The notes under the pieces are model-generated. The model saw only the letters and a program-made list of their open reading frames with translations. It did no database searches and was not told the origin of the DNA. Shown piece after piece: positions 1,039-60,991 of a stretch of 64,000 bases of DNA. The DNA is from Bacteroidia bacterium (GTDB lineage: Bacteria; Bacteroidota; Bacteroidia; SpSt-205), in the NCBI GenBank assembly GCA_025059535.1, contig JANXCX010000024.1, forward strand, positions 106,569 to 170,568. Direction: 5' to 3'. Made by a program: the position numbers and the translations under genes. Numbering within the stretch: the first letter of the stretch is position 1; each line of letters opens with the position of its first letter.

Positions 1039-1046
1039 TACCTTTG
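1039..1046 (+). promoter_or_regulatory. Bacteroidota -7 promoter box TACCTTTG
   Basis: Matches TAnnTTTG; 8 nt before ATG 1055. Confidence 0.6.
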
Positions 1047-1054
1047 CTGGCAGT

Positions 1055-1849
1055 ATGCGTAGTATGCGAGTCGTGCTTGTCAGTGTGGCCCTGCTAAGTG
1101 GGGGCCTACTCCATGCCCAAGAAGGCGTGAAATTCGGGTTGCGATTGTCGCCGGGGATTGGCTTTTTCGGCGTTGACTCAAGCGGCCGTACCTCCATCAA
1201 GAACCTCACCTCTAGTGGTGCCTTCAACATCGCTGGAGGGTTAATGCTTAGCTTCGGATTTTCGGATAATGTGGCCCTAATCTTAGGGCTCGGCATGGCC
1301 CGCGGCAGCGGCAAGATTACCCTAAAGCCCGACTATGGCATAGTCGGCCGCGTGGGAACTAACGCTGACACCCTTTACCTCCGAGAAACCGGCCTTACAG
1401 GCGAGTCGCCGATTTCCTACCGCCTTACTAGCCTCAATGTACCTGTATTCATCAAGCTGCGCACAAACCCTATAGCTGAAACGCCTATCCGCGCAAAGGC
1501 CCTTTTAGGTGGTCAGGTAGACTTACGTATAGGCTCCTCCACTAAGTCCGAGCGCCGCTTGGTAGCGGAGTCTTTTATTGATGAGGGTGTCGTACGTACC
1601 AGCGACCATTTTGGTAGCTTCTTTGCACAGCTCTCCGCCGGGGCGGGCGTAGATGTAGTTCTGGAAGGCATTGGTACGATTGACTTTACAATCCTTTACA
1701 ATCATGGCTTGACTAATTTCCTAAATAAAGACTTCAAATTTGAGGCTACGGTGAATAATACCACCTATACTGACCTGAAGCCGTACGAAAAGCTGCGCGG
1801 CATTCTTAGTACCTTGCAGTTCCAGCTCATCTTCTGGTTCGGCGAATAA
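1055..1849 (+). CDS. Outer membrane beta-barrel protein (PorT/porin-family-like)
   Basis: Signal peptide ending LHA-Q, KFGLR, LNVPVFIKLRT, LYNHGLTN and a C-terminal QFQLIFWF strand. Confidence 0.75.
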   Translation: MRSMRVVLVSVALLSGGLLHAQEGVKFGLRLSPGIGFFGVDSSGRTSIKNLTSSGAFNIAGGLMLSFGFSDNVALILGLGMARGSGKITLKPDYGIVGRVGTNADTLYLRETGLTGESPISYRLTSLNVPVFIKLRTNPIAETPIRAKALLGGQVDLRIGSSTKSERRLVAESFIDEGVVRTSDHFGSFFAQLSAGAGVDVVLEGIGTIDFTILYNHGLTNFLNKDFKFEATVNNTTYTDLKPYEKLRGILSTLQFQLIFWFGE

Positions 1850-1870
1850 GCCTTTTAGCTGGCTTGCTTC

Positions 1871-1905
1871 GGGCACCCTCTTATAGAGGGTGCCCAGTTT
1901 TTTTA
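1871..1905 (+). terminator. Intrinsic terminator
   Basis: 11-bp perfect stem GGGCACCCTCT-tat-AGAGGGTGCCC followed by AGTTTTTTT, between convergent genes. Confidence 0.85.
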
Positions 1906-1907
1906 TT

Positions 1908-57810: not shown

Positions 57811-57814
57811 AAGC

Positions 57815-58234
57815 ATGCGCTGGGTCGCTTTTCTCTTAGTCGCTTATTTGAGTGCTCAGTCGGGCGGGTATGACCCAAATGAGGTGATTGGTGAATCGGA
57901 GGGCGAGACGCCCTCCCCCGTCGTGGTGCCACGGGAGGATATAGCCATTCAAATAAATGGCCAGCCTTTCCAGTGGCAGGACCCTTTAGTTATAGAGGGC
58001 GGTAAGACATATCACATTTATATCACGGGTATGCGGCCGCATTCTAAGCTGATTTTACGCTTTTTCAAGGCAGGGCAGAGCGCAGGCGGGCGCCAGTTTG
58101 ACGCCAATGAATATGGTGAGCTTGAATTGGAAGCCCGTTTAGAGAAGCAGAAAGTTCAGGGCATAGCTGAAGTAATTTATTATCCTTCAAATGGGCGGGA
58201 GGTTCGTCGGCGCTTCAAGGTGAAGATACACTAG
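57815..58234 (+). CDS. Hypothetical secreted beta-sandwich protein
   Basis: Signal peptide ending LSA-Q; beta-strand-rich mature region. Confidence 0.65.
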   Translation: MRWVAFLLVAYLSAQSGGYDPNEVIGESEGETPSPVVVPREDIAIQINGQPFQWQDPLVIEGGKTYHIYITGMRPHSKLILRFFKAGQSAGGRQFDANEYGELELEARLEKQKVQGIAEVIYYPSNGREVRRRFKVKIH

Positions 58235-60134
58235 CTGGGCGTAAAAGCCGGCGACTCCAGGCGATTTCCGCCATCAGTAGCCCTAGCGCTAGTCCCAGCC
58301 AGAGCCACCATGGGCGCCAGCGCAGGGTTAGATAAGCCGGTTTAAAGGCACCTTCACTCCACTGGCGCACTTCTACCGCTAACCCAGCCGCCTCCCACTC
58401 CGCTGGCGCAAGAAAGTCCGAGTAAGATTCGCTAGAGGGCCTATTGACACCGATATAACCGTATAGCTTCTCTTGTAGATATACGCCGTATAGCCCAGCT
58501 GGGAGGGGATACTCCCCTAAGCTAAAGGTGATTGTATGGCCTTGCGCTTCGGTATGCGGGGTATGCACGAAGCTCGAACGGGTGTGCCGAAGCGTTACGG
58601 GCCCTTCGGCGGCAGGTAAAGTGAAGGTCCGACGCGTCCCAAGCGGCACATAGCCTATCCATCCGCTTCCGTGATGCCGCCAGAACAACCGCTCAAAAAG
58701 CGGCACAAAGAGGCTGTGATGGCCTAGCGAACTGCCCCACCAAGGAAAGGCAAAAAGATACACAAACCCCTTTTGCCAAGGAATTTCCCAGAAAAGCGGC
58801 GTGCCTTCGGCGGTCTGTAGGAGGACTCTACCGCCACTTGGACGAAGCAGGTAGAGAGAAGCCACCGTGAGCGGTTCGGGCAGGCTTAGCCCTTCGCCCC
58901 CTATGGGCACAAACACCTCTTCCCACAGCGGGTGAGTTAGAGGGGTAAGATAGACGGCCTGAGGCGCTGGGGCCAGAACGCCATCCACCTCTAGGTCAAA
59001 AAAAGCGTTTCGCCAGGCCAAAGGAGTATTTTGGGCTGGGGCGAAAGCTACCAAGGTACCCCCTTCGGCTACCCAAGCCGCTATACCCCCTGGTAGGTGG
59101 CCAAGCTCTCCCACCCACAAACGGGTAGCCTCCGTAGGAGTATTCAAATCCGTTTTAGGCCAGCTCAGTACCTCAAAAAGCCTTTGGAAAGCGCTCTGGC
59201 TCAGAAGGCGTGGGTCACCGCCGCAGAGCGCTTGCCTCTCTCCAGCCCTCAGCCAACCTATCCCACACCAGTTGTCCACTTCTATGGCATCGCCTCTTAT
59301 TTGCAGCTCTATTCGGCCTTCGGTTAGGGGTATTAGCTCCTCATGGCGGCCTACCGCACAGGGGCGCACCCGATTACCCACCTGTATGGTGTAAATGGTA
59401 TCCTTCGGCCCCTGTAGCCTATACGCCACCCGAATCCGATCCCCAACCGCCGCTACATTTACCGAGTCAAACCAGGCATTCCCTCGCCAATCCGCCCGCA
59501 CAGGAAAGAGTACGAGATCACCTTTTACCTGTCCCTTCAGCCGGGCCAAATTTCCTACAGAAGTGCGCTGAAAGTCAGAGAATACATATATTTTTTTCTT
59601 CTCATAGCTTGCTTCCCGAAAAAAGAGCTCAGATCTCTCTAAGAAGTAGGCCAATGGATATCCCATGTCAGCGGGCTGAATAGCCGCTACTTTTTCCTTC
59701 ATAAGCGCCGCTGGTAAGAAAGGACTGCGCGGCACATAGCTGTCGGTAGTAAGAAGCCTGAATTCCTGCGAAGCGGGTGCTTGACGCAAAACCTCCTGAA
59801 GCAGAGCCTGCAAGGTAGCCCAGACTGGATGCATAGAGGGCGAAACATCCACAATTACAAGCACCGAAGTGCCCCCAAGACGCATAGACAGGCCTTTACC
59901 CCACTGAGGTCGGGCAAAAAGTAGCACAATAGCCGAAAGAGCCGCCAAGCGCAGAAAAAGGAGAATCCAGTGATGCAGCTTTAGGTAAGGTCGGTTGAAC
60001 TGCTTGAGCCGCTCTACCCACAGTGCCCGCGAAAACTCATACCGCCGGGAGCGCCGAAGGTAAAAGAAATGCACTACAATCGGTACAATCAGAGCTAAAA
60101 GGCCCCACAGAAAGTGGGGAAAGAGGAAATTCAT
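58215..60134 (-). CDS. BatA N-terminal double-TM / VWA domain-containing protein
   Basis: [39 protein letters not shown]-terminal TM. Confidence 0.88.
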
Positions 60135-60976
60135 CGCTTTCTTGGGGTTACATGCCGTTCGGAGTGATAGGAGGAGCGCACTAAAGGCCCGCTTTCTACG
60201 TAGTCAAAGCCCATCTCTAGCCCAAGCCGCGCATACGCCTCAAATTCCTCAGGTGGCACGAAGCGCTCTACGGGCAGATGAGCGGGGGTAGGTTGAAGGT
60301 ATTGGCCTAAAGTAAGCACATCGCAGCCATTAGCCAGCAGATCCGCCATAAGTTCTATGACCTCTTCGTGCGTCTCACCCAAACCTAACATAGCGCCAGA
60401 CTTAGTACGGAATCCCGCTTCTTTAGTTCGACGGATCTGTTCCAGGCTGCGTTCGTATTTGGCTTGAGGCCGTACGCGGCGGTAGAGGCGACGTACGGTC
60501 TCCATGTTATGCGAAACTACATCTGGGCCCTCTTCCAGGACACGATAAAGGGCCGCCCAATTCCCTTTGAAGTCGGGTAGCAAGACCTCAATCGTCGTGT
60601 GGGGCATGCGCGTTTTGATAGCCCGCACCGTACGGGCCCAAATTTCCGCGCCCCCATCTTTGAGTTCATCCCGATTGACCGAAGTAATCACGCAGTGTTT
60701 GAGTTGCATAAGTTCTACTGCTTGAGCCACGCGCTCAGGCTCTTCCCAATCCAGCTCGGTGGGGCGGCCCGTTTTTACGGCGCAGAAGCCGCAGGAACGC
60801 GTGCAGATATTTCCCAAAATCATGAAGGTAGCTGTGCCGGCGCCCCAGCATTCGCCCATATTAGGGCAGTGGGCACTCTCGCACACCGTATGAAGGCGAT
60901 GGGTGTCTATAACCTGACGGACAAAACGGTAGTTAGCGCCTGAGGGCAGTTTGACGCGCAGCCAAGCCGGGCGCAT
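60131..60976 (-). CDS. lipA: Lipoyl synthase
   Basis: [39 protein letters not shown]. Confidence 0.98.
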
Positions 60977-60983
60977 AGCCTAT

Positions 60984-60991
60984 CAAAGGTA
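60984..60991 (-). promoter_or_regulatory. -7 box TACCTTTG (lipA)
   Basis: 7 nt before ATG 60976; directly after the upstream terminator U-tract. Confidence 0.65.

Follow-up and report, generated by a model that had tools for sequence, protein, structure and literature searches.

We analysed a 64,000-nucleotide stretch of a Bacteroidia bacterium genome, referred to as the window (G000:C25:106569-170568 of a 1.92 Mb assembly with 25 contigs and ~55% GC), and found the sequence TAnnTTTG, known as the -7 promoter element of Bacteroidota, placed directly in front of start codons. This arrangement recurs throughout the genome and points to leaderless or near-leaderless transcription of about half of the operons, as well as of tRNAs, from sigma-A promoters located immediately before the start codon, a reading to which we assign a probability of about 85%. 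Throughout, the gap denotes the number of bases between the G of the TAnnTTTG box and the start codon.

The window contains 43 exact boxes compared with 28.8 expected (only 1 of 100 shuffles reached 43), and 14 of them are located 3–8 nucleotides (nt) ahead of an ATG or GTG opening at least 50 codons. By chance, ~0.1 such box-start pairs would be expected, multiplying 43 boxes by ~58 starts and 6 positions and dividing by 128,000 strand positions. The 14 exact boxes named in a preliminary description of this DNA, and their gaps, all proved correct (Table 1). Two of the three near-matches named there, at 4862 (AAATTTTG) and 57815 (TATCTTGG), are one-mismatch boxes with a gap of 4, while the third, at 35149, was not reproduced: the ATG at this site has its first base at 35150 and is not in frame with the open reading frame (ORF) 34036-35169. 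A box had also been placed 7 nt before the mature tRNA-Gln, and we indeed find it at 48519-48526 on the minus strand, with the mature 5′ end at 48511. In an Rfam scan of the window, tRNA was the sole match.

Genome-wide, box-to-start spacing was determined by a motif-centred test that uses no gene calls and an ORF threshold of at least 100 codons. Among 1355 boxes, 427 were found at gap 3–8 before an ATG or GTG opening such an ORF, with counts of 31, 195, 79, 52, 38, and 32 for gaps 3, 4, 5, 6, 7, and 8, respectively, and a background of ~8 for each position from gap 10 onwards. The excess of boxes is thus seen mainly ahead of gene starts and, as described below, of tRNAs. With ATG as the only start codon, 317 of the 1355 boxes were retained at gap 3–8, 144 of these at gap 4, compared with 9/427, 12/669, 5/348, and 16/684 (1.4–2.3%) for four control motifs. 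Boxes with one mismatch showed smaller peaks at gaps 4–5, as for CANNTTTG (30 vs. a background of ~6) and TANNTTCG (33 vs. ~5). The sharp peak at 4–5 nt and the 1–2% of the control motifs agree with the outcome that the preliminary description had predicted for its proposed genome-wide test, as do the other computational tests suggested there. No such peak was observed in loci of Bacteroides, Flavobacterium, Prevotella, and Rikenellaceae: among boxes in the NusA loci retrieved, a gap of 3–8 was seen for 36 of 136 within the family of this genome and for 6 of 544 elsewhere, where the mode is near 17–21 nt.

The peak could in principle be an artefact of mis-set starts or of chance, with the true starts elsewhere and the ATG after the box a coincidence, which we regard as highly improbable. 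In the start-codon and operon-head counts given below, the box position was known when starts were selected, and homology contradicts ~5% of the box-linked starts, which look false, with the box being intragenic (TTG 4934 inside purK; test genes q58, q163, and q175). On the other side stand the gene-call-free spacing test, with its 195 cases at gap 4 and low control motifs, and the homology of the encoded proteins. For rpmH, panD, porX, lipA, sppA, rimP, and purK, the called start coincides with the beginning of the NCBIfam family profile. The homology test was repeated with N-terminal fragments against non-family DNA, and in 66 of the 71 testable genes the alignment extends at most 5 residues upstream of the called start. 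The alignment-start offsets of the 71 genes were 0 (12 genes), 1–5 (21), 6–15 (16), >15 (6), -1 to -5 (11), and below -5 (5), and the homologue has a methionine at the start column in 19 of the 28 alignments reaching this column. In an earlier version based on long tblastn alignments against non-family DNA, 33 of 138 alignments had seemingly begun upstream of the called start; on inspection these were mostly over-extensions, with the homologue's own methionine opposite the called start in several cases.

TAnnTTTG is a promoter in this genome, namely the -7 element of the Bacteroidota housekeeping sigma factor. Gene calls (1576 genes) and operon heads were obtained with a crude ad hoc caller, and the following fractions are approximate. 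Exact boxes at gap 3–8 precede 205 of 446 divergent heads, 120 of 227 co-directional genes located 10–49 nt from their neighbour, 60 of 156 co-directional genes at least 50 nt from their neighbour, and 25 of 724 tightly packed internal genes. When one mismatch was allowed, the same four classes gave 284/446, 157/227, 62/156, and 87/724, compared with ~11% at a control offset. The box-linked share is 43–53% for divergent heads and co-directional heads at 10–49 nt, 28–38% for heads at 50 nt or more, and 3–4% for internal genes. The proposal that most transcription units start 0–4 nt from the AUG is to be qualified: 43–46% of geometrically defined operon heads carry an exact box and ~64% one with up to one mismatch. 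The rpmH gene (gap 4) and the rimP-nusA-infB operon (gap 6, and 5–6 in 11/11 family loci), both singled out earlier, are among the box-abutting starts.

Since the box also occurs before tRNAs and is almost absent before operon-internal genes, it acts as a promoter and not as a ribosome-binding signal. We thus consider it very unlikely that TAnnTTTG at -12 to -5 is a translation signal, e.g., a U-rich site bound by the ribosome or S1, on leadered mRNAs. Such a signal would suit a phylum that dispenses with the Shine-Dalgarno (SD) sequence and uses other upstream nucleotides for initiation, as described in PMC6847099, and would fit the class 'non-SD RBS' (ribosome-binding site), into which GeneMarkS-2 places 89.9% of the genomes of the FCB group (PMC6028130). 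It would, however, be equally expected at operon-internal genes, and it would not be expected ahead of tRNA genes, which are not translated and 28 of which (out of 43) have the box at this distance. In addition, no difference is seen between the box and the sigma-A -7 element as defined by experiment, down to the depletion of G and the A/T patches lying upstream by one and two helical turns: in the aligned sites, G makes up only 9% and 5% of the bases at the n positions, and weak A/T-rich patches are located at about -16 to -20 and -27/-28 from the predicted transcription start site (TSS). A -33 element was not visible in the aligned promoters of this genome.

The exact box is located 4–13 nt before the mature 5′ end of these 28 tRNAs, with a mode of 7, and most of the remaining tRNAs are downstream members of clusters with spacers of 0–2 nt. 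In other Bacteroidota DNA examined, the nearest box before tRNAs was 11–108 nt away; shorter gaps were seen in genome G353 (6–23 nt) and in the sister-family genome G013 (7–11 nt). Three tRNAs, Asn-gtt, Ser-cga, and Arg-ccg (contigs C1 and C9), have a gap of 4, and the TSS at those promoters must consequently lie at most 4 nt past the box, so that these tRNAs could be transcribed from tRNA position 1. Leaderless tRNA transcription is known from Nanoarchaeum equitans, which these three tRNAs resemble. Unlike in N. equitans, our genome has RNase P RNA and an rnpA-like gene, and most tRNA gaps are 5–13 nt, for which 5′ trimming would still be needed.

A further possibility is that the boxes are real promoters and the genes are nevertheless expressed mainly from upstream promoters or by read-through, leaderless transcripts forming a minority. 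The genome is very compact, the promoter regions upstream of the box have a coding-like composition, and the 120 box-linked genes that follow a co-directional gene at only 10–49 nt make read-through physically possible. We still judge this explanation unlikely. For the 205 box-linked divergent heads, co-directional read-through is impossible, and 52 divergent pairs genome-wide are boxed on both sides, many of them 27–60 nt apart, leaving no room for further promoters. In the family loci of rimP, moreover, box, spacing, and ATG are kept and the flanks have diverged. In the window, the divergent pairs 18146-18181, 39593-39622, and 57787-57815 are 27–34 nt apart and each contain two back-to-back -7 boxes, which places the remainder of each promoter inside the coding sequence of the neighbour.

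How close to the start codon transcription would begin can be estimated from mapped relatives. In F. johnsoniae, the box extends from T-12 A-11 to G-5, leaving 4 or 5 nt to the TSS (as described in PMC6847099), and in F. psychrophilum it spans -12 to -5 (as described in PMC9723704). The peak gap in our genome equals this published box-to-TSS spacing, in agreement with the earlier assignment of TAnnTTTG as the Bacteroidota -7 element with a nearby TSS. Combined with the modal gap of 4, a spacing of 4–5 nt would make the initial base of the start codon the +1 position. We infer the TSS position from the F. johnsoniae spacing, and the tRNA 5′ ends set a bound on it.

These data suggest the following model. 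At about half of the transcription units, the -7 element has been shifted to a position immediately before the start codon, most often at a gap of 4 nt. RNA polymerase would start 4–5 nt past the G of the box, so that transcripts at gaps of 4–5 would begin with the A or G of AUG or GUG, while gaps of 6–8 would yield leaders of 1–4 nt. By analogy to other leaderless systems, ribosome, initiator tRNA, and IF2 would recognise the 5′-terminal start codon directly, involving neither SD pairing nor an A-rich leader. Downstream cistrons, which carry neither box nor SD and very often overlap the preceding stop (ATGA), would probably be read by termination-reinitiation coupling. The tRNA genes show the same minimisation of the leader.

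SD-like 4-mers at -18 to -4 were not enriched in any gene class, with 1% in box-linked genes, 9% in internal genes, and 8% in other heads compared with 12% in random 15-mers. Among internal genes overlapping the upstream gene, the overlap is precisely 4 nt in 176 (ATGA type) and 1 nt in 34. An SD signal is seen in none of them, and internal cistrons may therefore generally rely on stop-start coupling. Loss of translation factors was considered as a correlate and rejected, because bS21, S1, and IF3 are all present. The ATG of rpsU, encoding bS21 (G000:C4:31743-31940; L135 1492-1689), is located 5 nt past a one-mismatch box (TATTTTCG) with no SD upstream. Flavobacteria are said to keep an SD on rpsU for autoregulation.

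Several observations weigh against leaderless transcription as the dominant mode. Besides the ~5% of apparently false starts and the approximate operon-head fractions, the N-terminal homology test covered only 71 of the 415 box-linked genes. The TSS position is borrowed from mapping in F. johnsoniae and F. psychrophilum rather than from this organism or its relatives, and additional upstream promoters may give rise to leadered transcripts. A search of sequencing runs for window positions 48400-58300 listed no RNA run. For 122 of the 427 boxes, gaps of 6–8 imply leaders of 1–4 nt or a shifted TSS and not strictly 0 nt. Some heads have their box at 9–17 nt (24512 and 44607, both with a gap of 13), and others have no recognisable box (2669-, 9147-, and 20243-). 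The translation apparatus, with the three proteins named above in place, shows no obvious adaptation, and a genome of the same genus retains the anti-SD CCUCC in its 16S rRNA (16S is absent from this assembly).

Table 1 Boxes, starts, and associated genes in the window; gaps in nt, profile coordinates refer to family profiles.
Positions	Strand	Feature	Remark
1039..1057	+	exact box TACCTTTG, gap 8, ATG 1055; 264-residue ORF without family match	
4776..4790	-	exact box TAACTTTG, gap 4, ATG 4778; 673-residue protein with type IX secretion system (T9SS) sorting domain	
4850..4864	+	one-mismatch box AAATTTTG, gap 4, ATG 4862, purK	family profile 2-366 vs. 3-372/376, start agrees
9459..9475	+	exact box TACCTTTG, gap 6, ATG 9473; rimP heading rimP-nusA-infB	
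18144..18159	-	exact box TACTTTTG, gap 5, ATG 18146; NAD-dependent sugar epimerase/dehydratase heading rml operon	back-to-back with rpmH promoter
18169..18183	+	exact box TACCTTTG, gap 4, ATG 18181, rpmH (L34)	profile 2-44 = residues 3-45
24491..24514	+	exact box TATTTTTG, gap 13, ATG 24512, NAD synthase	predicted leader ~8-9 nt, not leaderless
26342..26356	+	exact box TACCTTTG, gap 4, ATG 26354, sppA	
39591..39605	-	exact box TATCTTTG, gap 4, ATG 39593, porX	profile 2-513 = residues 4-519; 2 nt to divergent box
39608..39624	+	exact box TATATTTG, gap 6, ATG 39622, SiaA-like phosphatase	
44586..44609	+	exact box TACTTTTG, gap 13, ATG 44607, UDP-glucose 6-dehydrogenase	short leader predicted
48440..48526	-	tRNA-Gln 48440-48511 with exact box TATCTTTG, 7 nt to mature 5′ end	prs directly downstream
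48598..48614	+	exact box TACCTTTG, gap 6, ATG 48612, M23 peptidase	
50940..50955	+	exact box TACCTTTG, tandem GTGs 50950 (gap 2) and 50953 (gap 5; second of the pair), panD	residues 1-113 from 50953 = profile 1-113
52240..52257	+	exact box TATCTTTG, gap 7, ATG 52255; 1090-residue T9SS cargo protein	
55781..55794	+	exact box TATATTTG, gap 3, ATG 55792, nuoB	
57785..57801	-	exact box TATATTTG, gap 6, ATG 57787; 123-residue ORF	
57803..57817	+	one-mismatch box TATCTTGG, gap 4, ATG 57815; 139-residue ORF	divergent to 57787
60974..60991	-	exact box TACCTTTG, gap 7, ATG 60976, lipA	profile 1-278 = residues 2-277

Three further sites in the window are worth noting. The longest prs ORF, 47497-48519(-), spans tRNA-Gln, and its family profile aligns from residue 33 only, placing the true prs start just downstream of the tRNA; prs is probably co-transcribed with tRNA-Gln from the tRNA promoter. 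At the unusual divergent pair 44550-44607, minus-strand boxes are found at 44557-44564 (TAGGTTTG) and 44596-44603 (TACCTTTG), in addition to the gap of 13 before 44607, and the start of ORF 43828-44598 is ambiguous (TTG 44598, GTG 44580, or GTG 44550). Downstream of rpmH, the rnpA-like ORF 18470-18730(+) is short (86 residues from GTG), and only the middle part of RNase P protein profiles could be aligned to it.

The closest relatives by NusA are isolates annotated as 'MAG: Bacteroidia bacterium' (64–98% identity), whereas NusA of all other Bacteroidota shows ~41% identity or less. A box followed by 4 nt and ATG has 137–223 matches in each of 17/17 genomes of this family, compared with 2–23 for a reversed control. 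In a sample of 400 genomes from the phylum, none came near this ratio; the best values came from family f48 (50 vs. 6 and 39 vs. 5) and from genome G123 (128 vs. 33). A sample of 300 genomes from the class added, among others, f92 (357 vs. 75), f70 (87 vs. 7), and f110 (187 vs. 63). Genomes enriched to varying degrees were G450, G487, and G517 (f92), G428, G468, and G625 (f70), G229, G245, and G353 (f48), G551 and G578 (f110), and G123. Both scans are lower bounds, as the gap-4 count under-detects broader gap distributions or AT-rich genomes. The sister-family genome G013, for example, had 55 vs. 41 by this count, yet 151 box-linked starts per Mb (192 kb analysed). The corresponding density was 223 per Mb in our genome (whole genome), 202 in the AT-rich G450 (f92; 134 kb), 80 in G123 (400 kb), 75 in G428 (f70; 200 kb), and 62 in G353 (f48; 400 kb), compared with 55 and 45 in the ordinary Bacteroidia G399 and G025 (200 kb each).

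The pattern is thus family-wide here, recurs partly or strongly in a few other Bacteroidia families, and is not typical of Bacteroidota. A lineage-level switch, as put forward in the preliminary description, holds for all 17 family genomes; it is not unique to this lineage. Beyond this, we think it rather probable that 5′-leaderless RNA is the default for mRNAs and tRNAs across the family and, independently or patchily, in several other Bacteroidia families, using the phylum-specific TAnnTTTG promoter with no SD as back-up, such that a 5′-terminal start codon and stop-start coupling would be essentially the only initiation signals.

The rimP promoter provides a direct comparison between the family and the rest of the phylum. 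Within the family, TACCTTTG, a gap of 5–6, and the ATG are kept in 11/11 loci, with varying flanks and spacer. Of 27 other Bacteroidota loci, 23 contained a rimP ORF, and 21 of these a box, which was located 61–75 nt from the first ATG in 17 loci and 25–29 nt from an earlier ATG in 4. Between box and ATG, the leader of non-family rimP (Flavobacteriaceae and other Bacteroidota; e.g., L019 ~9440-9505) contains a GC-rich hairpin that is conserved and has a T run behind it, and looks like an attenuator of rimP-nusA-infB. This entire leader is missing in the family of our genome.

The promoters resemble the sigma-ABfr-type promoters of B. fragilis, F. johnsoniae, F. psychrophilum, and B. thetaiotaomicron, which have -7 TAnnTTTG and a weak -33 region, avoid G at the n positions (TAHHTTTG), and carry A/T-rich patches near -18 and -28. 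They share with those of F. johnsoniae, as characterised in PMC6847099, the G depletion at both n positions and the weak A/T patches that lie upstream by about one and two helical turns; a visible -33 element is reported to be lacking in F. johnsoniae as well. Unlike in mapped Bacteroidota, where promoters are located well upstream of genes, about half of the operon heads have the box right next to their start codon. For F. johnsoniae, leaders are given as longer than 10 nt in 87% of cases, with a mean of 33 nt (PMC6847099); F. psychrophilum is credited with a median leader of 24 nt and 5.5% leaderless mRNAs (PMC9723704), and B. thetaiotaomicron has a median leader of 32 nt, with 3.7% of leaders shorter than 10 nt.

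Parallels are also found outside the phylum. In Deinococcus deserti, 60% of mRNAs are reported as leaderless, and its mapped set with 0-nt leaders comprises 740 ATG, 176 GTG, and no TTG starts (both as stated in PMC4007540). The gap-4 set of our genome similarly has 138 ATG, 49 GTG, and no TTG starts, i.e., the predicted 5′-terminal codons are AUG or GUG and never UUG. Gaps 4 and 5 together account for 72 GTG starts. The share of operons is comparable to group C of GeneMarkS-2 (Actinobacteria, Deinococcus-Thermus), for which PMC6028130 gives 25–50% leaderless operons. Unlike group C as defined there, which has SD sites at internal and leadered genes, our genome shows no SD signal at any gene class, and the promoter element is TAnnTTTG and not the TATAAT-type Pribnow box of leaderless-dominant bacteria. 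A Pribnow-based survey (PMC3160421) scored the phylum as practically devoid of leaderless genes, which it listed for a single one of 37 Bacteroidetes/Chlorobi genomes, at 2.4%. Its method detects Pribnow-like boxes only, and the survey itself says that other promoter types may be missed; surveys of this kind are blind to the version used by this phylum. In the full texts searched, no leaderless-dominant Bacteroidota lineage is reported; supplements, such as GeneMarkS-2 Table S4 with possible group assignments, were outside the scope of that search. Among Bacteroidota studied to date, start-codon-abutting promoters with predicted leaderless messages are rare.

Bacteroidota serve as the textbook example of bacteria in which SD pairing is ignored and leaders with Kozak-like upstream nucleotides are still used. 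For annotation, gene callers expecting an RBS will mis-set starts in these genomes, where the box offers an independent and very sharp marker of the start codon. A lineage of this phylum in which about half of the operons would have lost their leader represents a natural experiment on what a Bacteroidota ribosome with a sequestered anti-SD needs for initiation. It also raises a second question, namely what would have replaced leader-borne regulation, such as that of the structured rimP-nusA-infB leader that is gone in this family.

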